Notes: generated by a model not told the origin, from the sequence alone. DNA of 64,000 bases from Chloroflexota bacterium (GCA_016178045.1 JACOUE010000019.1:1377-65376), one strand, 5' to 3'. Shown: positions 14,553 through 27,380, numbered from the stretch's first letter. Numbers and translations are program-made.

Positions 14553-15814
14553 GACTGCGCAGGCTGGTCCTGGCGGTAGTCCTGCTGCCGCTGCTGCTGC
14601 TGGCGCTGGCCGGCGGGACGGCGCGGGCCAAGGGCGACATCACCGTCACCGGCGCAGGTGTCGATAACCGCTTCCCCAACGGCCTCCACTTCAGCCTCTC
14701 CGCCACGAGCGACTCGTCTATCGAGGAGGTCCGCCTCCGCTACCGCGTCCTGCCGGACGGCCCCGTCTCCCTCGGGGTGCCCGAGTTCGAGCCCGGCGAG
14801 TCCGTCAGCATCGGGTTCCAGGTGGGCGGCGGCGCCGAGCTCTACCTGGCCCCGGGCGCGACCATCCGCTACGCCTGGGAGCTGACCGACGCCTCCGGCG
14901 GCACCGTGACCACGCCCACGAAGACCGCCGTCTACGACGACGTGCGTTTCGACTTTCAGGTGGAGCCGGCGGCAGGCGTCCGGCTCTACTGGTACGCGGG
15001 GAGCCGGGAGACGGCCCAAGAGATGCTCCAGGTGGCGCGGGAGACCCTGGACCGCATGTCGCACCTCTTGGGCGCCGAGGTCGACTTCCCCGTGAAGGTC
15101 TGGGTGTACGCCGACTCGGGCGACATGCGGCCGGCGCTGGTCCACCGCAGCGAGGCGTACGAGGAACGGATCACCACCTACGGCACGCGGGTCACGTCGG
15201 ATACAGTCCTCGTCCTGGGCTCCGCAGCGTTCGATACCCTCCGCCACGAGCTGGCGCACATCGTGACCGGCGTGGCCGGGGAGGGGCCCTACGGGGCGCT
15301 GCCGGACTGGCTGGACGAGGGGACGGCGGTCTACGCCCAGTCCGGCCCGGGCAACTACGGCATCGCGATCGAGCGGGCGGTGGCCGGGGGGAACGTCTTC
15401 TCGCTGCCGGCCATCAGCTCCGCCCCCGGCGACCCCGACAAGGTTCTGCTCTTCTACGGCCAATCCTGGAGCGTGGCCTCGTACTTGATCGATACCTACG
15501 GCCCCCGGAAGTTTGCCAGGCTGTTCGAGGCCTTGAGGGAGGGCGCCACCACTGACGGCGCTCTGCGGGACGTCTACGGCTTCGACCAGGGCGGGCTGGA
15601 AGACCGCTGGCGGGAGAGCGTGGGCCTGCCGCCGCGGGCGACGTCGCCGCCGGAGGACGGTGCGCGTTCGCCCGGGCCGGGGCAGAACGGGACGGCTTCG
15701 TCGGCCGGAGATGGGAACGGCACGGGCCTGATCGTGGCGCTGGTGGCGGCGGTGCTGGCCTCCGCGCTGGTGCTGGGGGCCGGGGGGTACCTGCTGTCGC
15801 GGCGCTTCCGCTAG
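14549..15814 (+). CDS. Secreted/membrane-anchored zinc metallopeptidase-like protein (HExxH)
   Basis: The TTG start overlaps the prfB stop (TTGA). It has a signal peptide, an HELAH motif and a C-terminal TM segment (LIVALVAAVLASALVLGAGGYLL). Confidence 0.6.
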   Translation: MRLRRLVLAVVLLPLLLLALAGGTARAKGDITVTGAGVDNRFPNGLHFSLSATSDSSIEEVRLRYRVLPDGPVSLGVPEFEPGESVSIGFQVGGGAELYLAPGATIRYAWELTDASGGTVTTPTKTAVYDDVRFDFQVEPAAGVRLYWYAGSRETAQEMLQVARETLDRMSHLLGAEVDFPVKVWVYADSGDMRPALVHRSEAYEERITTYGTRVTSDTVLVLGSAAFDTLRHELAHIVTGVAGEGPYGALPDWLDEGTAVYAQSGPGNYGIAIERAVAGGNVFSLPAISSAPGDPDKVLLFYGQSWSVASYLIDTYGPRKFARLFEALREGATTDGALRDVYGFDQGGLEDRWRESVGLPPRATSPPEDGARSPGPGQNGTASSAGDGNGTGLIVALVAAVLASALVLGAGGYLLSRRFR

Positions 15815-16590
15815 GGGATGATGAGCCCGGAGCCGCGGCGCTTGCCCCTCTCGATGGGCTTCTGGGCCGGCGGCGGTTCGGCGGGGGAAGCGGGGCCCTG
15901 CGCCTCGGCGGGCTCGGCCACGGGCGACTCGACCGCCTTCACCACCTGGTCCACGAAGACGTTCTCGGGCACGGCGCCGGGGATAGCGACTTTGTCGTTG
16001 ATGACGGCGAGGGGCACGGCCCGCACCTGGTAGCGCTGGGCCAGCTCCGGGAACTCGTTGACCTCGATGACCTCGGCGGTTACGCGGGGGCTTTCCAGCG
16101 CCAGGTTGTAGGCGAAGCGCGCCATCTGAGGGCAGTAGGGGCAGGTGGGGGTGACGAAGACCAGGATCTGCACGTCCTCCTTCAGCTTGCGCAGCGCCTT
16201 CTTCGACGCTTTGGAAAGGAGGGACATGCCGCGGGACGTATCGACGATCGTCTCCACGAAGGCGGGGAACTCGGTGCCACCGGGCAGGCCGTAGAACTTG
16301 AGGCCGCGGTGGTCCTTACCGTGCAGGAGGATACCGGGTATCTTGTCGACACCGTACTTGCGCGCCTCCTCCTTCGCCTCCTCCAGGTCGTGGACGCGGA
16401 GGCTTATCAGGTCGCTGAGGGCGGCCAGCTCCTGGAGCATCTCGCGCGCCGGCTTGCAGTAGGCGCAGGGCTGGCGTCCCGGGACGTAGACGGACAGCTC
16501 CTGCTGGGTGAAGAACTCGATCTTGACGGGATTGATCAGCTCAAGGGCGAACTTCTGACGCAGGACATCCTGGTCCTTAAGCGGAATCAC
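15811..16590 (-). CDS. Two-domain thioredoxin-fold protein (glutaredoxin-like / PDO-like)
   Basis: Two CxxC motifs (CAYC, CPYC) are present, each in a Trx-like half. Confidence 0.75.
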   Translation of the reverse strand: MIPLKDQDVLRQKFALELINPVKIEFFTQQELSVYVPGRQPCAYCKPAREMLQELAALSDLISLRVHDLEEAKEEARKYGVDKIPGILLHGKDHRGLKFYGLPGGTEFPAFVETIVDTSRGMSLLSKASKKALRKLKEDVQILVFVTPTCPYCPQMARFAYNLALESPRVTAEVIEVNEFPELAQRYQVRAVPLAVINDKVAIPGAVPENVFVDQVVKAVESPVAEPAEAQGPASPAEPPPAQKPIERGKRRGSGLIIP

Positions 16591-17188
16591 TACGGTCTCC
16601 CTCTTCCAGCGGCTCTTGTGACCTGCGCCAGGCCAGGAACAGGCGCTGGGCGGCGGTGAGGTTGGCGGCGATGGCCAGTATCCAGAGCACCACCGTCACC
16701 TCGTCGATTATAAGTCCGATCCCCAGCACCAGCACCCGCTCCGGCCGGGCGAAGATCCCCTCGCGCGTCGACACGCCGACGATCTCAGCCCGCGCCCGCA
16801 CGTAGCTCACCAGGATGGAGCCGGCCATGGCGGCGAAGGCCAGCAGGACGCCGTCGCGGTCGTCGCGGCCGCTGAACCAGACCATGAGGCCGAAGAGGAC
16901 CGCCGCCTCGGAGACGCGGTCCATCACGGCGTCGAAGATGGAGCCGAAGGCGGTGGCGCGTCCCGTAGCCCGGGCCAGCGCCCCGTCCAGAAGGTCGACG
17001 GCGCTGGCCGCCAGCGTGACGATGCCGCCGGGCAGGAACTGGCCGCGGGCCACCAGCACCGCCGCCCCGACGTTCCCCAGCACCCCGATTAGGGTGAGGT
17101 GGTTGGGGGAAAGCCCCAGGCTGGCGAGGACGCCCACGATGGGGTCGGTCAGCCGCTGCAGGAAGGACCGGGGGAGGAGGAAGGACAT
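16577..17188 (-). CDS. CDP-alcohol phosphatidyltransferase (phosphatidylinositol-phosphate synthase-like)
   Basis: It carries the DLLDGALARATGRATAFGSIFDAVMDRVSE signature (D..DG..AR...G...D...D). The operon also contains ino1. Confidence 0.8.
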   Translation of the reverse strand: MSFLLPRSFLQRLTDPIVGVLASLGLSPNHLTLIGVLGNVGAAVLVARGQFLPGGIVTLAASAVDLLDGALARATGRATAFGSIFDAVMDRVSEAAVLFGLMVWFSGRDDRDGVLLAFAAMAGSILVSYVRARAEIVGVSTREGIFARPERVLVLGIGLIIDEVTVVLWILAIAANLTAAQRLFLAWRRSQEPLEEGDRSDSA

Positions 17189-18337
17189 CTAGGGGCCCGC
17201 GTCCCCGTCGGCGGGGGCCCGGCCGTTCATGACGCGCTCGTAATAGGCCATGATGTCGCGCCAGACCCGGTCCCAGCTGTAGCGCCGGGCGGTCTTCGCT
17301 CCCTGCTTGCCCATCACCTCGCGCAGGGCGGCGTCGGAGAGGAGGCGCCAGAGAGAGTTGGCCAGCCCCTCGACGTCCCGCGGCGGCACGAGGAGCCCCT
17401 CCTTGCCGTCGGCGAGGACGTCGCCGAACCCCTCGATGTGCGAGGCGACGATAGGGGCGCCGGCGGCCATCGCCTCGAGCAGGATGATGCCGAGGCTCTC
17501 GGCGCCGGTGTTGGGGGCGCAGTAGACGTGGGCGGTCTTGAAGTAGCGGACCTTCTCCTCCTCCGAGACGTAGCCCGTGAACACCACGTCGCGGAGGCCC
17601 TTGCGCTGGACGTAGCGCTGGCAGGCTTGGCGCATGCCGCCGTCGCCGCCGACGATGATGAGGCGCGTATCGGGCAGCTCCTCCTTGAGCAGGGCGTAGG
17701 CCTGGAGCAGGTAGGGAAGGCCCTTTCGCTTCTCCAGCCGCCCCAGGAAGAGGATGTTGAGCTTGCCGTCGATGTACTCAGGCATCGGCGGGACTTCGGC
17801 GGCGAAGAAGCCGTAGTCCACGCCGTTGGGGATGACCTGGTAGCGGTCGGCGAAGTACTTGCCGATAAGCCGCAGGGCGGTCCGCGATACCACGATACGG
17901 CCGTTGAGGCGATCCCACCAGGGCCGGATCAGGTAGCGGGCGTAGGCGTAGAGGCGGCTGCCCCCTTCGCGGGCGGCGTGGAACGTCGCCACGTTTGTGG
18001 TTCTGGAGTGGCGCATGAACTGGAAGGGTAGCAGGGGCATGAACGGCTCGTGGAGGTGCACAACGTCGAAATCGTTCCGCTCCAGGAACCGCTTGACCCT
18101 CGATCCCAGGTTGAAGGAGAGGCTGATATTGGCCACGGAGCCGGAGGCGGGCAGCCCAACGGTGTACTCCCCGATGATGGTGAGGTGGTCAGCGGCGTGC
18201 GTCCACGGCTTCGAGGAAGGCGCCACGATGCGGACGTCGTGCCCGGCGCGGAGGAACTGCTGCGCCAGGTTCGTGACGTGGCTGTTGCAGCCCCCGGGCA
18301 CGGCCCAGTCGTAGGGAGAGACGAGGGCGATCCTCAT
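17189..18337 (-). CDS. GT4 glycosyltransferase (PimA-like)
   Basis: MRIALVSPYDWAVPGGCNSHV begins at ATG 18337, with an ATGA overlap with the upstream gene. The C-terminus carries the GT4 E-x7-E region (ESLGIILLEAMAAG). Confidence 0.85.
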   Translation of the reverse strand: MRIALVSPYDWAVPGGCNSHVTNLAQQFLRAGHDVRIVAPSSKPWTHAADHLTIIGEYTVGLPASGSVANISLSFNLGSRVKRFLERNDFDVVHLHEPFMPLLPFQFMRHSRTTNVATFHAAREGGSRLYAYARYLIRPWWDRLNGRIVVSRTALRLIGKYFADRYQVIPNGVDYGFFAAEVPPMPEYIDGKLNILFLGRLEKRKGLPYLLQAYALLKEELPDTRLIIVGGDGGMRQACQRYVQRKGLRDVVFTGYVSEEEKVRYFKTAHVYCAPNTGAESLGIILLEAMAAGAPIVASHIEGFGDVLADGKEGLLVPPRDVEGLANSLWRLLSDAALREVMGKQGAKTARRYSWDRVWRDIMAYYERVMNGRAPADGDAGP

Positions 18338-19113
18338 GGCACGAAGGGAAAGATGCGCTTGATGAAGCTCCGGGTGGTGGGCCACCACCCCATCACCCGC
18401 GGCGTCACCGTTAGGCCGCGCCAGGTCTGCCGCAGGATCTGCCCCAACCCTATTTCCGCCAACGAGGGGTGGTGACCGGCGACTCCCTCCGTCGTGCGGG
18501 CCAGGATGCTGCGCTTCAGGTCCTCTGCGGTCCTGCCCTCGAAGAGCGTGTAGGCGCTGCCCACGGCCTTGAGGAAGTGGGCGTCGCTGCCGCCCACCTC
18601 GGCCAGGTGGTATTGCTCGCGGTTGAGGCGGTGGGCCTTCTCCAGCGTCACCCGCGCCCCCAGCGACTGGTTGGCCGTCTCCAAGCCGTCCAGGTACACG
18701 CCCTCCCGGCCCGAGGCGAGGATGCGCTCGATTACCCGCTGGCCCAGGCTGCGCGTCAGCCAGCTCATGGGGTGAGGGATGATACAGACGCCGCCCTGGG
18801 AGTGCACCTCCTCCAGGGTCTTCTCAATGGAGGTGAAGGTGGAGACAGGCTCCTCGACGAAGAGGGCGAGGAGGTGGCCCTCCAGGGCCGTCACCTCCAT
18901 CCCAGGCACCACCTCGAAGCGGTAGCGCCCCCTAGCCCACGCTTCCCGCGCCTCGTGGGCGCCGCGGAGGCTGTCGTGGTCGGTGACGGCGATGACGTCC
19001 AGGTCGGTGGACGACTGCACGTAGTCCAGCAGCTCCGGGACGTCGGCCATGCCGTCGCCGATGGCGGAGTGGACGTGGAGGTCGGCCTTCCCCCGCTGCG
19101 GCCCAGCCTTCAT
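18334..19113 (-). CDS. PHP-domain metal-dependent phosphoesterase
   Basis: KADLHVHSAIGDG...VIAVTDHD...IPHP...GGSDAHF. It has ATGA overlaps at both ends. Confidence 0.75.
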   Translation of the reverse strand: MKAGPQRGKADLHVHSAIGDGMADVPELLDYVQSSTDLDVIAVTDHDSLRGAHEAREAWARGRYRFEVVPGMEVTALEGHLLALFVEEPVSTFTSIEKTLEEVHSQGGVCIIPHPMSWLTRSLGQRVIERILASGREGVYLDGLETANQSLGARVTLEKAHRLNREQYHLAEVGGSDAHFLKAVGSAYTLFEGRTAEDLKRSILARTTEGVAGHHPSLAEIGLGQILRQTWRGLTVTPRVMGWWPTTRSFIKRIFPFVP

Positions 19114-20027
19114 GCCGCCTTGCTCCGGGCCGCCACCGGCTCTCTGCCCGCCCGCTCCTTCGCGTCCCAGATGGACTCGAACACGATCCACTGGCCGGGG
19201 TCCTGCCGCAGGTGCTTCTCGAACCGCTCCAGGAAGCGGATGGCGCTGGCACGGACGTTGTGCTTCATGTCGCCGCTCAGGTCCATCTCCAGCGGCTTTT
19301 CCAGGAACGCCTCGATCTTGTCGAACTCGCGGCGGTAGCAGAAGACGGGGATGACGGTGGCGCCGGTGCGGATGGCCACCTCAATGGGGCCGGTGGGCAT
19401 GTACGTCTCCTCGCCAAAGAAGGGCAGGAGCGCCTTCGGTCCCTCGATGTCGCGGTCGCACATGAGGGCGACGACGCCGCCGGACCTGATGATGCGCACG
19501 GCCGCCTTCACGTTCGCCATGTTCACCGGCACGAAGGCGTGCCCGTGGTAAGAGCGCAGAGCGTCCACCAGGCGCGAGAGGCGCGGCGGACTCAGGGGCT
19601 CCGTAAGGGCGAACGCCTTGACGCCACGGGGGAGGATGCCCTGTACCGCCAGCTCCGGGTTGCCGAAGTGGCCGCTGATCAGGATGACGCCCTTGCCCGG
19701 CTTGATGGCCGGCAGCACGTTCTCGTCGAAGCCGTGGTAGGTGAGGCGGCGGTCGTAGAAGTCGTCCAGGTCCATGTGGGGGAGGCGTATCAGGTCGGCG
19801 TAGTACTTGGCGACGTTGCGGAAGACCTGGCGGGCCGCCTTCCGCACTTCCGACTCCGGCGCGTCCGGGCCCAGGACGTGGCGCATGTTGTCCCAGACGT
19901 TCCGCCTTATGCGGGGGAAGGTGAGGTAGACCATGTCCGCGACGAACTCCACGAACCGGTAGAGCGGGCGCGTCGGCAGGTAGGCAAGGCTGTGGAGGAC
20001 GATCTGGAACAGTATGTATTTCCACAT
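19110..20027 (-). CDS. Lysophospholipid/lipid A (LpxL/HtrB-like) acyltransferase
   Basis: It carries the ISGHFGNPE (H-x4-E) acyltransferase motif. Its position is equivalent to the PIM acyltransferase of actinobacterial pgsA1-pimA clusters. Confidence 0.8.
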   Translation of the reverse strand: MWKYILFQIVLHSLAYLPTRPLYRFVEFVADMVYLTFPRIRRNVWDNMRHVLGPDAPESEVRKAARQVFRNVAKYYADLIRLPHMDLDDFYDRRLTYHGFDENVLPAIKPGKGVILISGHFGNPELAVQGILPRGVKAFALTEPLSPPRLSRLVDALRSYHGHAFVPVNMANVKAAVRIIRSGGVVALMCDRDIEGPKALLPFFGEETYMPTGPIEVAIRTGATVIPVFCYRREFDKIEAFLEKPLEMDLSGDMKHNVRASAIRFLERFEKHLRQDPGQWIVFESIWDAKERAGREPVAARSKAA

Positions 20028-20058
20028 GGGACGCTAGGAGGACAGCGGCAGGGCGGAC

Positions 20059-21147
20059 CTAGGCCGGCGTTTGACCGTTCTTGCCCTCGATGAACTCCTC
20101 CGTCAGGATGCGGGCCTGCTCATCGGTGAACTGCTTCGGTGGGGACTTCATGAAGTAGGCGCTGGGACCCGAAAGCGCCCCCGGTACTCCCCGGTCGATG
20201 GCCAGCTTGCAGCACCGGATGGCGTCGATGACGACGCCGGCGGAGTTGGGGCTGTCCCACACCTCCAGTTTCACCTCCAGGTTTAGCGGCACCTCGCCGA
20301 AGGCCGTCCCTTCCATGCGGATGTAGCACCACTTGCGGTCCTGGAGCCAGGGCACGTAGTCGCTCGGCCCGATGTGCACGTTCCCCTCGCCTATGGGGTA
20401 GTCGAGCTGGGAGGTGACGGCATTGGTCTTGGAGATCTTCTTGGACATCAGCCGCTCCCGCTCCAGCATGTTGAGGAAGTCTGTATTGCCGCCGAAGTTG
20501 AGCTGGTAGGTGCGGTCCAGGCGGACGCCGCGGTCGTGGAAGAGGCGGGTGAGGACGCGGTGGAGGATAGTGGCGCCCAGCTGCGACTTGATGTCGTCGC
20601 CGACGATGGCCGCGCCCCGCTCCTCGAAGCGCTTCTGCCAGTACTTCTCACGGGCGATGAAGACCGGCATGCAGTTGACGAAGGCGCACCCGGCCTGGAG
20701 CAGCTGCTCCACGTACCACTTCGTCGCCTCCTCGCTGCCCACCGGCAGGTAGTTCACCACGACGTGAGTGTCGCTGTCGCGCAGGATGCGAGCGATGTCC
20801 GAAGTGGGTCCGGGCGCCTTAGTCACGATCTGCGAGACGTACTTGCCGAGGCCGTCGTGGGTCATGCCCCGGGAGACGGGCACGCCCAGGTGGGGCACGT
20901 CGGCGAACTTGTGGGTGTTGTTGGGCGGAGTGAATATCGCCTCCGACAGGTCCTTCCCGACCTTGTTCGAGTCGATGTCGAAGGCGGCGACGAATTCGAT
21001 GTCACTGACGTGGTAGCCGCCCAGGTTCACGTGCATCAGCCCGGGCACGAAGTCCTTCTCGTCGGCGTTGTGGTAGAAGTGGACCCCCTGCACCAGAGAA
21101 GAAGCACAGTTGCCCACGCCTACGATCGCGACGTTGATCTTGCCCAA
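20059..21147 (-). CDS. ino1: myo-Inositol-1-phosphate synthase
   Basis: [23 protein letters not shown]. The probable start is TTG 21147 behind GGAG; the ORF track extends to 21192. Confidence 0.88.
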
Positions 21148-21230
21148 GTCTCTTCTCCTCCTGCTACGCCTCGACCGGCGAACCGCATGCATTTTAGCGT
21201 TATCTATCGGGGCCCAGCAAGCGCCGGCCC

Positions 21231-21959
21231 TTGTTCGTCCCTCCGGCCCTTTGTTATGCTCCCTTCCACAGGAAGCGAGCGGTGATCTACGATTTTCACA
21301 CTCATTCTACCCTAAGCGACGGCGCCCTATCGCCCCTCGAGGTCATCCGCCGCGCCCACGTCCACGGCTACAAGGGCCTGGCCATCACCGACCACGTAGG
21401 CATCGGTGGGATCGATCGGGTGGCCCAGGAGCTGTCCAGGGACTGCGACCTCGCCCGCCGGCACTGGGACATAATCTCGCTCCCGGGCGTCGAGATCACC
21501 CACGTCCCGCCCGGCGGCATCGGCGGGGCCGCGCAGGCGGCCCGCGAGGCGGGGGCGCTGGTAGTAGTGGTGCACGGCGAGACAGTAGCGGAGCCGGTGG
21601 AGGCGGGCACCAACCGGGGGGCAATCGCGTGCGGCCTGGTAGATGTGCTGGCGCATCCCGGTCTCATAACCCTGGAGGACGCGAAGCTGGCAGCGGAGAA
21701 GGGCGTCTTCCTGGAGCTGTCCGCCAAGCCCGGCCACGCCGTCACCAACGGGCACGTAGCCCGTATGGCGAGGCTGGCCGGGGCGAGGCTAATCGTGGAC
21801 TCCGACAACCACGACCTGGACTTCCTCACGCCGGAGCGCATCCGCGCCGTCGTCCTCGGGGCGGGGCTCAACGAAGAGGACCTGGAGGAGATAGCGACGG
21901 CGAACCCCCTCCTGCTACTGGACAGAGTGGCAGCACAGCAGGTACCGAAGCTGACTTGA
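21231..21959 (+). CDS. PHP-family phosphoesterase (histidinol-phosphatase-like)
   Basis: [13 protein letters not shown]...AITDH...VVHGE...DSDNH. The start is uncertain (GTG 21282 is possible). It is divergent from ino1. Confidence 0.75.
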
Positions 21960-22039
21960 GTGCCGACTCTGGAGCGCGGCCGAGGGAGGTACGCGGCCTC
22001 CCCGGCAGACTCAAACGAAGCAGACGATAGGCGAGACGC

Positions 22040-22180
22040 CTATCCCTTCCCGATGCGGTACATCTTGGTGCCGCAGACAGGGCAACTGCCCTGCGTGGCC
22101 GGTCGCCCGTTCTTGAGGGTGACCTGCTGAGGGTTGCGCATGTCGCGCTTGGTGCGGCACTTCAGGCAGTAAGCCTGCAT
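22040..22180 (-). CDS. Small zinc-ribbon protein (DUF5679-like), 46 aa
   Basis: Hand translation gives MQAYCLKCRTKRDMRNPQQVTLKNGRPATQGSCPVCGTKMYRIGKG, with two CxxC pairs. It is absent from the ORF track because it is under 60 aa. Confidence 0.6.
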   Translation of the reverse strand: MQAYCLKCRTKRDMRNPQQVTLKNGRPATQGSCPVCGTKMYRIGKG

Positions 22181-22312
22181 TTCAACCCCCTTTGGTTCAC
22201 TAGAAGCTGCCCGCCTTCTTCGCGCCTTAGGATACCCGTTTTCGGGCAGATGTCAAGAGGAGTAGCGTGGAAATACGAGGTCAATTGGCAAATTCGCTAT
22301 CAACGGCCGTAT

Positions 22313-23227
22313 TCAGGCGGGCGGAAACACCTTCTCGGGCCGCCATAGAGGCGCCGCGGCGTCGAACCGCATCACAGCCACGAACCGGCCGTCCTCCCCG
22401 TACGCCCGCGCCCGCCCGGCCGCTTCGGCGTCCTTGAGCCGCTCGAAGGCCGGCCGGTCGGCGAATATGGCGCAGCCGTGGCGCACGTCCTTTTCTTCCT
22501 CCATGTCGAGGACGACCGACGGCATCTGGCCGAGGCCAAAGTCCATGGGAATGAGGTGCTCGCGCCAGCGCCCGCTCTCCTGGCCGGCCTCCAGTTCCTC
22601 GATGGGCACAGCGTCCTCGATCGGGAACGGGCCGATGCGCGTGCGCTCCAGGGAGTGCAGGTGGGCGCCGCACCCGAGCGTCAGGCCCAGGTCGTGGGCC
22701 AGGGTGCGGATATAGGTCCCTTTGCCGCACTCCACCTCCAGGGCCACGAGCGGCGGCTCGAAGCCCAGGAGGTCGATGCGATAGATGACGGCCTTGCGCG
22801 GCGCCAGGGTCAGGGGCCGGCCGGCGCGGGCGTAGCGGTGGGCCGGCGTGCCGGCCCGCTTGACGGCGCTGTAGGCGGGCGGCACCTGCAACACCTCGCC
22901 GACGAACTCCGCGAGCGCTTCCCGCACCTGCGCCTCGGTGACGGCGTTGAAGTCTGCCTCTGCCGTAAGCCGGCCCGTAGCGTCGTACGTGTCCGTGGCG
23001 AAGCCCAGCTTCACCTCCGCCCGGTACGTCTTCGGCAGGTCCATCAGGTACTGGCTGATACGCGCGGCCTGGCCGAGGAGGATCAGCAGAACTCCGGTGG
23101 CCTGAGGGTCCAGGGTACCGGCGTGCCCCACGCGCCGCTGGCCCGAGAGGCGGCGGACGGAAGCGACGACTTTGAAGGAGGTCCAGCCGGGCGGTTTGTT
23201 GACGTTGAGGACGCCGGTATCGCTCAA
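22313..23227 (-). CDS. truB: tRNA pseudouridine(55) synthase TruB
   Basis: GVLNVNKPPGWTSFKVV...GHAGTLDPQATGVL. Confidence 0.92.
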   Translation of the reverse strand: MSDTGVLNVNKPPGWTSFKVVASVRRLSGQRRVGHAGTLDPQATGVLLILLGQAARISQYLMDLPKTYRAEVKLGFATDTYDATGRLTAEADFNAVTEAQVREALAEFVGEVLQVPPAYSAVKRAGTPAHRYARAGRPLTLAPRKAVIYRIDLLGFEPPLVALEVECGKGTYIRTLAHDLGLTLGCGAHLHSLERTRIGPFPIEDAVPIEELEAGQESGRWREHLIPMDFGLGQMPSVVLDMEEEKDVRHGCAIFADRPAFERLKDAEAAGRARAYGEDGRFVAVMRFDAAAPLWRPEKVFPPA

Positions 23228-23229
23228 GT

Positions 23230-23583
23230 CTATTCGCGGCGCTTGCGGCCCAGCTCGTTCATCATCTCCAGGATGTGGGCCGCCTCCTCGATCGACTCGT
23301 CCAGGCGGAACTGGAGGATGGGCACGCGCTTGATGATGAGGCGGTCCCTGAGCTCATGTCGGAGGTAGGCGGCCGCCGCCGTGAGGGCGGTCATGGAGAG
23401 CGCCTTCTCCTCGGGAGTGCCCATTATGCTCACGTACACGCGGGCGTGCTGGAGGTCGGGCGACGTGTCGACGTGGGTGATAGAGGTGAACTCGGCGAGG
23501 CGGGGGTCCTTGACCTGGCGGCGGAGGAGGTCGGAGATCTCTCGCCGCAGAAGGACGTTCAGCCGTTCCAGGCGGCGGCTCAC
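23230..23583 (-). CDS. rbfA: Ribosome-binding factor A
   Basis: RLNVLLRREISDLL...VTITHVDTSPDLQHARVYVS. Confidence 0.9.
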   Translation of the reverse strand: MSRRLERLNVLLRREISDLLRRQVKDPRLAEFTSITHVDTSPDLQHARVYVSIMGTPEEKALSMTALTAAAAYLRHELRDRLIIKRVPILQFRLDESIEEAAHILEMMNELGRKRRE

Positions 23584-23610
23584 GGGTCGGCACCTCCTAT
23601 CCCGGCCTGG

Positions 23611-25497
23611 TTACGTCTTGGGGGCTCGGCGACGGCGTACCGGGGCCTTCTTGGCGGGAGCGGGCGAAGCGGCATCAGTCCCCGGCATGCGGCTCTCCTG
23701 GTGGAAGGCCTCGATGACGTCGCTTTCCTGGAAGTCGTCGAACCCTTCGACGCCGATGCCGCACTCGTAGCCGGTCTGGACCTCCCGCACGTCCTCCTGG
23801 AAGCGGCGCAGGCTGGCCACGCGCGACGTGTGGAGCACCTCGCCGCCCCGCTGAACGCGGCAGAGTGAGTTTCGGCTGACGGAGCCGTCGAGTAGGTAGC
23901 AGCCGGCCACCCGGCCGCCCCTTACCTTGAAGATGGCGCGCACCTCGGCGTGGCCGTCCACCACCTCGACCACCTCCGGCTCCAGCAGGCCCTGGACGGC
24001 CTTCTCCAGGTCCTCGGTCAGTTTGTAGATGATCTCGTAGTGGCGGATGTCGACGGTCTCGGCCTCGGCCAGACGGCGGGCCCCCGGGTCGGTGCGGACG
24101 TGGAAGCCGATGATGATGCCCTGAGAGGCGAGCGCGAGCATGACGTCGGACTCGCTGACGTTGCCGGTGCCGGTGTGGATGACCTTTACCTTGACGTTCT
24201 TGGAGCTCAGCCGCTCCACGGCCGTGCGGATCGCCTCGATGCTGCCCTGGACGTCCGCCTTGATCACGACGTTCAGCTCTTTGACCTTGCCCGCGGCGAT
24301 CTCGCCGGAGACGGCTTCCAGGGTCACGGCCCGTCCGCCCGTGCGTGCGAGGGCCTGCTGGCGCTCCCGCTCCTCCATGACGGTGCGGGCCGACTTCTCG
24401 TCCTTGAGGGCGGTGATGGCGTCGCCGGCGCGCGGCACGTCCTCCAGCCCCATGATCTTCACCGGCACCGAAGGCCCCGCTTCCCGGACGCGCTGGCCCC
24501 GGTCGTTGAACATGGCCTTGATCTTGCCCCAGGTGTCGCCCACGACGATCGCGTCGCCGACATGCAGGGTGCCTGTCTGCACGAGGACGGTGGCCATGGG
24601 ACCACGGGAGGCGTCCAGCTCGGCCTCGACGACGCTGCCGGCGGCCGGCCGGTCGGGGTTGGCCTTCAGCTCGGATATCTCAGAAACGAGGATGATGTGC
24701 TCCAGGAGGTCCGGTATGCCCTCCGCGGTCTTGGCGGAGACGGGGATGGCGATGACGTCACCGCCCCACTCCTCGATCAGGAGGTTGTGCTCCGTCAGCT
24801 GCTGCTTCACGCGCTCCGCATTGGCGTCCGTGAGGTCGACTTTGTTGATGGCGACGATGATGGGGACACTGGCGGCCTTGGCGTGGTCGATCGCCTCGAC
24901 GGTCTGGGGCATGACGCCGTCGTCGGCGGCGACGACGAGCACGGCGATATCGGTCACCTTGGCCCCGCGCGCCCTCATGGCGGTGAACGCCTCGTGGCCG
25001 GGGGTGTCGATGAAGGTGATCTTGTGGCCGCCGGCGGTAGGCTTGCCCTCCGCCGATACCTCCACCTGGTACGCCCCGATGTGCTGGGTGATGCCGCCGA
25101 CCTCCCCCGCGGTGACGTTGGTCTGGCGTATGGCGTCCAGGAGGCTGGTCTTACCGTGGTCGACGTGGCCCATCACCGTGACGACGGGGGGCCGCAACTG
25201 GAGCTTCTTCGGGTCCTCCTCCTCTTCGACCGCCTCTTTGGCGGCCGCGGCCTGCTCTTCTCTGGGCTGGGGCTGAAAGCCGAGCTGCTGGGCCACCGCG
25301 GCCGCCGTCTCGTAGTCGATGCTCTGGTTGATGGCGGCCATGACCCCGTTCTTCATCAGCTCCTTGATGACCTCGATGGGGGAGACGTTCAGGAGGTCGC
25401 CCAGCTCCCGTACGGCCAGCGCCGCCGGTATGACGGCCTGCTTGCTGGCCTGGGCCGTCCCGGTGGCGGCCTGTTCGTTCGCTGCGTCGGCGCTCAT
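23611..25497 (-). CDS. infB: Translation initiation factor IF-2
   Basis: [20 protein letters not shown]...DTPGHEAF...NKVD. Confidence 0.95.
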
Positions 25498-25802
25498 GGC
25501 TTCTCTTCGTCCCGCAGGGACTTAGCGTACTCCATCAGGTTCTGCTTGTGTTCGGCGGTCAGAGTGGCGCGGAGGCCGAAGTCCAGGCGGTCCTTCTTCA
25601 GGGCTGCCTCCCAGCAGGCGTAATCGCGGCAGAGGTAGGCGCCGCGGCCGGCCTTTTTGCCGGTCGCGTCTACTTCGACCCCGCCTTCGACCGTACGCAC
25701 CACCCGCACCAGCTCTCGCTTGGCGGTGTTGCGGCGGCAGGCGACGCACGTACGGAGGGGCACATGCTTGGCCCTTGGTCGGGCGGCTGTCTTGGCGGCC
25801 AT
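25494..25802 (-). CDS. ylxR: YlxR/RnpM (DUF448) RNA-binding protein
   Basis: PLRTCVACRRNTAKRELVRVV...GRGAYLC. It lies between nusA and infB. Confidence 0.85.
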   Translation of the reverse strand: MAAKTAARPRAKHVPLRTCVACRRNTAKRELVRVVRTVEGGVEVDATGKKAGRGAYLCRDYACWEAALKKDRLDFGLRATLTAEHKQNLMEYAKSLRDEEKP

Positions 25803-25821
25803 GGTCAGAACCTTCGGCTGG

Positions 25822-27264
25822 CTAAAGGTTCGGGTCCTCCCCGAGGTTCAGGTCCTCCTCGAGTTCCTCGTCCTCGAGCACGGGGCGGCGTGGGGCCTTC
25901 TTGGCCTTCTTCGCTTTGCCTTCTGTCTCCTCCCGTTGACGGGTGGCCTTCTTGCTCTTCTTCTTGGACTCGGTCTTGGGTGGAGTCAGGACGTCCTCGG
26001 CGAAGCGGATCACCGGCTTGGTGGGCCCGGCGCCCACGCCTACAGGTTCGGTCTCCCCGGCTGGGGGCGCAGCGGGCGCCTCTCCGGCAGGCGCTGTCCC
26101 GGCGGCGGCCTCCTCCCCCTCGATTACCTCCATCCAGGGCTCAACGGGCCGCTCTTCCTCGGTGACCTCGATCGCGCGCTTCTTCGCCGGGCGCTTGGCG
26201 GGAGCGGCCTCGGGCTCGGGGGCCGTGACCGCCTCCACCGCTGACTCGGGCTTGATGTCGATGCGCCAGCCGGTGAGCTTGGCGGCAAGGCGGGCGTTCT
26301 GGCCTTCCTTGCCGATGGCCAGCGAGAGCTGGCGGTCGGGCACGATGACGGAAGCGGTGTTCTCGGCCTCGCTGATCCCTACTCTGATCACCTGGGCCGG
26401 GCTCAGGGCGTTGGCCACGAAGCGGTTGGCCTCGCCGTCCCACTGGATCACGTCGATGCGCTCGCCGTTGAGCTCGTTGACGATGTTCTGGATGCGAATA
26501 CCGCGCAGCCCCACGCACGAGCCGACGGGGTCGACGCCCTCCTGCCGGGCGCTTACGGCAACCTTGCTCCGGTGGCCCGCCTCCCGGGCGATGGACTTGA
26601 TCTCGACCACGCCCTTGTATATCTCGGGGACCTCAAGCTCGAAGAGGCGCTTCAGCAGGTTCTTGTGCGTCCGCGACAGCACCAGCTGGGGGCCCCGGTT
26701 GGAGCGGAGCACCTCAAGGAGGTAGAACTTCATCCGCGTGCCGGGGCGGTACTGCTCCGTCCGCACCTGCTCCGAGGCCGGCAGTATGGCCTCCGTCTTG
26801 CCCAGGTCTATCACCGCCTGCTTGGGCTCGAGGCGCTGGATGACGCCGGAGACGATGTCGCCCTCGCGGTTGGAGAACTCCTCGAAGACCATCTCCCGCT
26901 CGGCCTCGCGCAGGCGCTGGAGGACGACCTGCTTGGCCGTCTGAGCGGCGATGCGACCGGCGTTGGCGGGCGTCACCTCGAACTCGATGACGTCGCCCAG
27001 CGCCGGGTTCGTCAGGTAAGCCTTCGCCTCGGCGACGGTCACCTCGATCTTCGGGTCCGTGACTTCGTCCACCACCGTCTTCTGCTGGTGGGCGTGGACG
27101 GAGCCCTTCTCCCGGTCGATGCGGACGACGATGTTGCCGACGAGGCCGGCGTCCCGCTTGTAGGCGGAGACGAGCGCCGCCTCGACGGCCTGGAGCACTA
27201 CCTCTTTGGGCAGGTTCTTCTCTGCCGCCAGCTGCGTTATCGCTATTAGGAACTCGCTCTTCAT
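25822..27264 (-). CDS. nusA: Transcription termination/antitermination factor NusA with K/E-rich C-terminal tail
   Basis: [24 protein letters not shown] begins at ATG 27264. S1 and two KH regions are recognisable. Confidence 0.93.
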
Positions 27265-27380
27265 TTTCGGCCGTCTCGCCCAATAAAAAAGTGGGGGCCA
27301 CCCACTCCAAAACAAAGGCCACTATTCCGCCTGCAATATAGCATGTCAAGTGGGGCCACGCAACCCCAGCGAGAAGGGAA

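Follow-up and report, generated by a model that had tools for sequence, protein, structure and literature searches.

We examined a 64,000-nucleotide stretch of DNA from a Chloroflexota bacterium (GCA_016178045.1 JACOUE010000019.1:1377-65376; hereafter the window), and in particular a run of five minus-strand genes predicted to make an inositol lipid. They encode Ino1, an acyltransferase resembling PatA, a PHP-family phosphoesterase that we call PHP1, a family 4 glycosyltransferase (GT4) resembling PimA, and a CDP-alcohol phosphatidyltransferase of the phosphatidylinositol-phosphate synthase (PIPS) type (Table 1). An initial annotation of this DNA had described these genes as a tightly coupled operon, and had proposed that PHP1 is the missing phosphatase that converts phosphatidylinositol phosphate (PIP) to phosphatidylinositol (PI). 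The five co-oriented open reading frames (ORFs) are present at the coordinates it gave, and the junctions read as it described. The acyltransferase stop and the PHP1 start share an ATGA overlap at 19113-19110 (the sequence reads GCATGAAG), the PHP1 stop and the GT4 start share another at 18337-18334 (CCATGAGG), and GT4 and PIPS are directly adjacent, with the stop of the former followed by the start of the latter in TAGATG at 17191-17186. The gap between the end of ino1 and the ATG of the acyltransferase gene is 31 nt, and the TTG start of ino1 at 21147 lies 8 nt behind a Shine-Dalgarno sequence (AGGAGGAG). A promoter and terminator scan returned no terminator-like sites in 15000-22300 and no promoter-like sites between ino1 and PHP2, a second PHP gene that is indeed divergent from ino1, as had been noted. 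For GT4 and PHP, the ORF finder also gave longer alternatives that start with GTG; alignments of GT4 and PHP1 with their homologues begin at the ATG starts of the initial annotation.

Table 1. Genes of the inositol-lipid locus and its immediate flanks, in window coordinates.
Feature	Position	Strand	Supporting match or remark
ino1, myo-inositol-1-phosphate (= D-inositol-3-phosphate) synthase	20059..21147	-	TTG start; Inos-1-P_synth PF01658 131 bits
PatA-like acyltransferase, LpxL/HtrB superfamily	19110..20027	-	PF03279 120.7 bits
PHP1, PHP/PHP_C metal-dependent phosphoesterase, candidate PIP 3-phosphatase	18334..19113	-	PHP_C PF13263 44.5 bits (cut-off 21.3)
PimA-like GT4, predicted GDP-mannose:PI alpha-mannosyltransferase	17189..18337	-	full-length match to M. 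smegmatis PimA
PIPS-type CDP-alcohol phosphatidyltransferase	16577..17188	-	PIPSynth NF045883 143.9 bits (cut-off 170)
Protein disulfide oxidoreductase, two thioredoxin-like domains	15811..16590	-	TIGR02187 234.6 bits (cut-off 185)
PHP2, second PHP protein, PRK06361 family	21231..21959	+	NF004981 259.5 bits (cut-off 117)

Four of the five genes have homologues in the mycobacterial and corynebacterial gene set for PI and phosphatidylinositol mannosides (PIMs), namely ino1, pgsA1 (Rv2612c, the PIP synthase gene), patA (Rv2611c) and pimA (Rv2610c), and in both cases the genes are clustered in one operon. The resemblance to the actinobacterial pgsA1-patA-pimA set had already been recognized from the sequence, and it is borne out by matches to PimA (E 1e-64), PIPS (1e-27) and PatA (1e-15). 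The Chloroflexota operon differs from the mycobacterial one in that it includes ino1, carries PHP1 between the patA-like and pimA-like genes and has a disulfide oxidoreductase gene 3' of PIPS, while the actinobacterial operon has no phosphatase gene. Residues 1-371 of GT4 align with residues 5-369 of Mycobacterium smegmatis PimA at 222 bits, against 85 bits for the next-best GT4; by this alignment GT4 is a PimA orthologue, and its donor and acceptor specificity is predicted. For the acyltransferase, PatA structures are the only matches in the PDB, and the best NCBIfam match is PRK07920, a PIM acyltransferase (116 bits, cut-off 209). Ino1 scores 535 bits against TIGR03450 (cut-off 638), and its orthologues, which are 72-83% identical, stand at the head of the operon in most related loci. 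PIPS, the PatA-like protein and Ino1 thus all score below the NCBIfam equivalog cut-offs. A second PatA-like paralogue is encoded on another contig of the genome (C63:34079-34873, minus strand; 30% identity to the operon copy, E 3e-36), and in most PHP1-bearing relatives a second acyltransferase copy sits inside the operon.

As the initial annotation had supposed, the transferase is of the PIPS type rather than a PgsA or cardiolipin synthase. Its best NCBIfam match is PIPSynth; the archaetidylinositol-phosphate synthase model scores 134 bits, and the pgsA model reaches only 29 bits; it also matches CDP-OH_P_transf (46.7 bits) and the Mycobacterium PIPS structures (E 2.5e-27). The aspartates of the D1-D4 motif (D65, D68, D86 and D90) are all present, as are two arginines, R151 and R182, and all six residues are invariant in 88 Chloroflexota PIPS homologues. 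These arginines are the counterparts of MtPIPS R155 and R195, which bind the phosphate of inositol phosphate and are missing in eukaryotic PI synthases (PMC4634129). Because PIPS keeps both of them, its product should be PIP rather than PI or phosphatidylglycerol phosphate, and a phosphatase step is needed. Prokaryotes are known to make PI by a two-step route, and ever since this route was revised in 2009-2010 the enzyme for its second step, PIP phosphatase, has been described as unidentified; only in Bacteroides has one been assigned, the PgpA homologue BT_1525 (PMC9246714, PMC9385802, PMC4634129). Apart from BT_1525, whose deletion strain accumulates PIP (PMC9246714), reviews and primary papers up to 2022 describe the phosphatases of bacterial PIP and of its archaeal counterpart, archaetidylinositol phosphate, as unidentified, and our full-text literature searches found no PHP protein linked to PIP dephosphorylation. 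The PIPS gene is the only CDP-alcohol phosphatidyltransferase gene (PF01066) found in this 89.8%-complete genome, in which no pgsA or pssA homologue was detected. As it is the sole match to this family, inositol lipids may be the main CDP-diacylglycerol-derived phospholipids of the organism.

PHP1 is clearly recognized by PHP_C, and its match to the PHP domain itself is sub-threshold (PF02811, 21.3 bits against a cut-off of 26.4). Its AlphaFold2 model is a distorted (beta/alpha)7 PHP barrel (pLDDT 90.6, pTM 0.86), and each of the 35 highest-ranking Foldseek matches is a PHP domain. The nearest folds are TM0559 (2anu) and BVU_3505 (3e38), both proteins of no known function, and then the TrpH/YciV enzymes RNase AM (7ug9, 9etk) and Cv1693 (2yb1). 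These proteins are the best matches of PHP1 in fold (Foldseek E 7e-12 to 3e-8, TM 0.5-0.65) as well as in sequence, and they share with it the PHP barrel and the His/Asp/Glu metal ligands; what sets PHP1 apart is a cationic C-terminal tail of its own and a gene neighborhood exclusive to inositol lipids. Judged from the alignments, the metal ligands of PHP1 (pattern HxH, D/H, H, E, H, DxH) are intact, and an alignment of 49 homologues shows no variation at H15, D20, H46, E73, H80, H114, E145, D177 and H179. The tail (residues about 216-259) is cationic and amphipathic; in the model the last ~45 residues form two lower-confidence helices that are rich in Arg, Lys and Trp. Its net charge is +5, against -9 for the body of the protein. 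The same contrast is seen in 77 PHP1 homologues, where the net charge averages +6.5 over the final 40 residues and -6.2 over the catalytic body. Such a tail is absent from the other complete PHP paralogues of the genome. One PHP_C protein that is truncated by the start of its contig (C34:61-357, plus strand) also has a strongly cationic end, with a charge of +8 in its last 40 residues, in contrast to the PHP paralogues on contigs C61 and C13. No signal peptide was found in PHP1, which is therefore expected to be cytoplasmic, and the cytoplasmic side of the membrane is where PIPS and PimA act.

To examine the gene context of PHP1 across the phylum, we used the 80 best loci, with one genome per species. 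A phylum-level profile search picked up paralogues down to E 1e-31, and so it gives no clean count of presence and absence. In 78 of the 80 loci, genes for GT4, PIPS or the acyltransferase adjoin the PHP1 relative, and this linkage persists through rearrangements. The loci span Dehalococcoidia, Anaerolineae, Ktedonobacteria, Chloroflexia, Thermomicrobiales, Limnocylindria and Dormibacteria, and cultured carriers include Thermoflexus hugenholtzii for Anaerolineae and, for Ktedonobacteria, two species of Thermogemmatispora and Ktedonobacter racemifer DSM 44963. The genes occur in five or more different orders. The full six-gene order is ino1-AcT-AcT-PHP-GT4-PIPS (AcT, acyltransferase), and an alternative, PIPS-ino1-AcT-AcT-PHP-GT4, occurs in loci L116, L125 and L131-L137. 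Other loci have ino1-PHP-GT4-PIPS, or PHP-GT4-PIPS without an acyltransferase (Chloroflexia and Thermomicrobiales), or PHP-PIPS without GT4 (L109, L122 and L123). In the loci that we mapped, PHP1 always lies between the acyltransferase and GT4 genes where both are present, and in the smallest gene sets PIPS is the partner left beside it.

The association extends to gene fusion. Using a concatenate of GT4 and PHP1 as the query and scoring only the PHP part, we found two proteins, P0133 (679 aa) and P0130 (574 aa), that combine a PimA-like domain with a PHP domain. The N-terminal part of P0133 aligns with the PimA-like GT4, and its PHP domain, the one that was aligned, keeps every motif residue. 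The PHP domains of these fusions are distant relatives of PHP1, and both fusion genes directly follow genes for a CDP-OH transferase and an Inos-1-P synthase. In other classes, extended open frames surrounding PHP were also considered as fusions and were rejected, as they proved to be separate genes in different frames.

These results are best explained if all five genes belong to a single operon whose end product is a PI that is both acylated and glycosylated, that is, a PIM-like lipid. Ino1 would supply inositol phosphate, which the PIPS-type transferase would join to CDP-diacylglycerol to give phosphatidylinositol 3-phosphate, the PIP of this pathway. PHP1, which its cationic amphipathic C-terminal helices would anchor to the anionic surface of the membrane, would then hydrolyse the inositol 3-phosphate monoester and convert PIP to PI. 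The PimA-like GT4 would glycosylate the inositol of PI, and the PatA-like enzyme would acylate the glycosylated product. The analysis shows which genes are present and how they are arranged, that PHP1 retains its metal site and tail, and that it is linked to such genes across the phylum and fused to one elsewhere; the substrate of PHP1 and the order of the steps are what we infer. That PHP1 is dedicated to the inositol-lipid pathway is very probable, because its linkage holds phylum-wide through rearrangements and extends to a fusion. Within the pathway, the conversion of PIP to PI is the sole step without an assigned enzyme, and the only phosphomonoesters are inositol phosphate and PIP, so PHP1 is most simply a candidate PIP 3-phosphatase. 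We consider this the most likely reading and give it about an even chance.

Several observations weigh against this reading, and the first of them concern the distribution of PHP1 among its closest relatives. We surveyed 151 genomes of the class, 109 of them high-quality (the names of the homologues point to Dehalococcoidia), and the resulting counts are not corrected for shared ancestry. A PIPS-type transferase is encoded in 147 of the 151 and in all 109 high-quality genomes, against 73 and 54, respectively, for PHP1. Twenty PHP1-less loci occupy the same syntenic site behind nusA-infB-rbfA-truB and have the gene sets ino1-GT4-PIPS, ino1-AcT-GT4-PIPS, AcT-GT4-PIPS or smaller, with intergenic gaps too small to hold an extra gene. 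A replacement phosphatase was sought in these 20 loci by ORF clustering and none emerged. The flanks contain housekeeping genes only, and the ones that recur are purA, dapA, asd, dapB, pnp, prfB and those for endonuclease V, USP and dehydrogenases; with no phosphatase among the recurrent ORFs, PHP1 does not appear to have been displaced in situ. PHP1 is thus an optional, lineage-specific part of an otherwise orthologous operon. Since the syntenic PHP1-less operons keep a PIPS with both arginines, PHP1 would seem to be dispensable for the pathway, and since about half of the related genomes keep the operon without it, either another phosphatase does the step there or the phosphate stays on. The claim that PHP1 is the missing PIP phosphatase therefore survives in part: it has gained a firm tie to the pathway from the phylum-wide linkage and the fusions, and it has lost ground through the absence of the gene from about half of the class. 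Of the argument that the initial annotation had itself raised against its proposal, namely absence from orthologous operons that still make PI, one half, the absence from syntenic operons, is now observed. As a consequence, PHP1 is a possible PIP phosphatase of this lineage rather than the general missing enzyme.

Within the class, PHP1 also tracks the acyltransferases more closely than it tracks PIPS. A hand tally of the 151 genomes gave 67 with both PHP1 and a PatA-like acyltransferase, six with PHP1 only, 21 with the acyltransferase only and 57 with neither. The 19 PHP1-bearing loci that we mapped in the class have the order [ino1]-[AcT2]-AcT-PHP-GT4-[PIPS]-[oxidoreductase], and the acyltransferase gene is present as an adjacent pair in 14 of them and in none of the 20 PHP1-less loci. 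This pattern favors an alternative in which PHP1 acts later and strips the 3-phosphate from a glycosylated or acylated PIP derivative, thereby freeing O-3 for a second acyltransferase; the PHP1-less core operons would then make another end product, or a housekeeping phosphatase would handle PIP. The genes are nested as such a role would predict, with ino1-GT4-PIPS near-universal, the acyltransferase in 88 genomes and PHP1 in 73, 67 of which also have the acyltransferase. The constant position of PHP1 between the acyltransferase and GT4 genes and the restriction of the acyltransferase pair to PHP1-bearing loci fit as well, and in the PIPS product the phosphate sits on inositol O-3, which is where mycobacterial Ac2PIM2 is acylated. 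However, PHP1 has no acyltransferase nearby in a number of the phylum-wide loci (L062, L065, L066, L096, L102, L110, L112, L114, L115, L118 and L121) and is accompanied by PIPS alone in the three PHP-PIPS loci mentioned above, and the association within the class, where the tally is uncorrected for phylogeny, may reflect joint loss in reduced genomes. We regard the later step as unlikely, and retain hydrolysis of PIP itself as the preferred function.

Other points against a PIP 3-phosphatase come from the protein. The first His of the HxH motif, H13, is Gln in three of the 16 aligned PHP1 orthologues, the nearest characterized relatives act on nucleotides or RNA, and the cationic tail could equally well bind nucleic acid. 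PHP1 might instead act on a soluble phosphoester, such as the CMP released by PIPS, the GDP released by GT4, pAp-like compounds or inositol phosphate, in a role comparable to the one that Nudix and HIT genes have next to the mycobacterial operon, where nucleotide-hydrolase genes flank pgsA1-patA-pimA. In both sequence and fold the closest characterized relatives are RNase AM and Cv1693, a 3',5'-nucleoside bisphosphate phosphatase, and an accessory clean-up enzyme would be expected to be dispensable, as PHP1 is in half of the class. Yet the similarity to TrpH/YciV enzymes is limited to some 70 N-terminal residues (about 9-80), and their models match at residues 9-76 only, with scores far below the cut-offs (RNaseRnm, 45.8 against 375; nside_bi_sphtase, 41.2 against 400). 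Two features point rather to a membrane-bound substrate, namely the cationic amphipathic tail, which is conserved, and the fusion with a PimA-like domain, itself membrane-binding. As for inositol phosphate, the genome already encodes an IMPase-family protein, and hydrolysis of this compound would starve PIPS. A soluble substrate is in our view quite improbable, and a lipid substrate, most simply PIP, is to be preferred.

Finally, the PIP phosphatase could be sought elsewhere in the genome, which encodes one PAP2 protein, one IMPase-family protein and three more PHP_C proteins. PAP2_3 genes also lie in both fusion loci (L139, 9935-10726; L140, 3423-4139) and could encode either rival lipid phosphatases or AUR1-like inositol-phosphoryl transferases; the one in L140 overlaps the start of the PIPS gene. 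If the single PAP2, a PHP_C paralogue or an unknown protein were the PIP phosphatase, PHP1 would be unrelated to lipid dephosphorylation and might, for instance, have a regulatory role or hydrolyse esters other than phosphates, as CehA/McbA-type metallohydrolases do. The CehA/McbA metallohydrolase domain is in fact the best NCBIfam domain match of PHP1 (74 bits, cut-off 80), and PHP_C proteins are encoded in 144 of the 151 class genomes, PHP1-less ones included. Against this, the linkage of PHP1 through at least five gene orders and its occurrence in fusions are hard to explain without a pathway role, and the cationic tail sets PHP1 apart from the other complete PHP paralogues of its genome. 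The gene contexts of these paralogues showed nothing lipid-related, with naive ORF calling being noisy at 68% GC. In PAP2 lipid phosphatases such as PgpB, moreover, the active site is located at the outer face of the membrane, opposite the cytoplasmic face at which PIPS and PimA work. We give this possibility only a slim chance, and PHP1 as the PIP 3-phosphatase remains the reading that we favor.

PgpA, the family of the Bacteroides enzyme, was considered as an alternative PIP phosphatase in the class and rejected, as it is encoded in only four of the 151 genomes; PgpA (PF04608) was likewise not found in the 89.8%-complete genome studied here, which speaks in favor of PHP1. The four genomes (G029, G064, G088 and G142) make up all of family f32, the only well-sampled family without any PHP_C protein; genome G132 also lacks PHP_C and has no PgpA. 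It is possible that PgpA and PHP_C displaced one another once, and as the combination of PgpA with no PHP_C is seen in a single lineage, it counts as one event.

The operon is of a known kind, and its PHP enzyme would catalyse an established reaction as a non-homologous variant. The closest parallel is BT_1525 of B. thetaiotaomicron, which carries out the reaction proposed for PHP1, PIP to PI, and is encoded alongside MIP synthase and PIP synthase in one cluster, a setting like that of PHP1 (PMC9246714). The two differ in that PgpA is a membrane protein, while PHP1 combines a soluble PHP barrel and an amphipathic tail, and their folds are unrelated. PHP1 thus provides a concrete candidate for a PIP phosphatase, one that is soluble and operon-locked to PIPS across a whole phylum. 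If this is confirmed, the lipid phosphatases would gain a new fold, a function could be assigned to a large PHP_C subfamily that is now named only "metal-dependent phosphoesterase TrpH", and the envelope lipids of the mostly uncultured Chloroflexota would become easier to predict. PI has been reported as a major lipid in Ktedonobacteria, for Dictyobacter (PMC12453558), and K. racemifer of this class carries a PHP-PIPS pair, which fits the role proposed for PHP1; our literature searches found no report of inositol lipids in Dehalococcoidia. No PHP_C protein was found in Corynebacterium glutamicum, the one PI-making actinobacterial control genome searched, and PHP1 would therefore not by itself solve the mycobacterial case.

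A broader proposal, which we put forward tentatively and consider rather doubtful, is that PHP1 founds a third, unrelated class of lipid head-group phosphatases, a PHP barrel with an amphipathic tail that would stand beside PgpA and PAP2/HAD. It would be the PIP 3-phosphatase of Chloroflexota/Dormibacteria and, as a PimA-like fusion, of some other bacteria, and it would free inositol O-3 for a second acyltransferase. By exposing O-3, PHP1 would license this second acyltransferase, and PHP1-bearing Chloroflexota would consequently be expected to make Ac2PIM-like lipids, with their PHP1-less relatives making simpler or still phosphorylated ones. As a wider part of this proposal, PHP_C-type proteins may take the place of PgpA across Dehalococcoidia, where the one family with PgpA is the one described above as lacking PHP_C.

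The genes on either side of the operon are also conserved to some extent. As listed in Table 1, the oxidoreductase gene overlaps the end of PIPS by 14 nt and is probably co-transcribed with the PIPS operon. A homologue lies 3' of PIPS in many related loci (e.g., L031-L037, L047, L048, L050 and L058), in synteny with the inositol-lipid operon. PHP2, on the other side, is encoded in 70 of the 151 class genomes, and a hand tally places it between truB and ino1, no more than ~9 kb from PIPS, in ~38 of these 70. It is near PIPS also in PHP1-less loci (L006, L007 and L022), and in the phylum-wide set it stands beside only five of the 80 loci, all among the closest PHP1 relatives. PHP2 lacks the cationic tail. 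The idea that it complements PHP1 was rejected, as the two are distributed independently (73 and 70 of the 151 genomes, with ~32 having both and ~40 neither by hand tally). PHP2 could be a second inositol-pathway phosphatase or a case of mere conserved synteny, and its membership in the system is uncertain. Directly upstream of the inositol locus is a nusA-infB-rbfA-truB block (22313-27315, minus strand), each gene of which is kept in 13-15 of the 20 PHP1-less loci examined. The conservation of this block indicates that the inositol operons lie at the same chromosomal site across the class.

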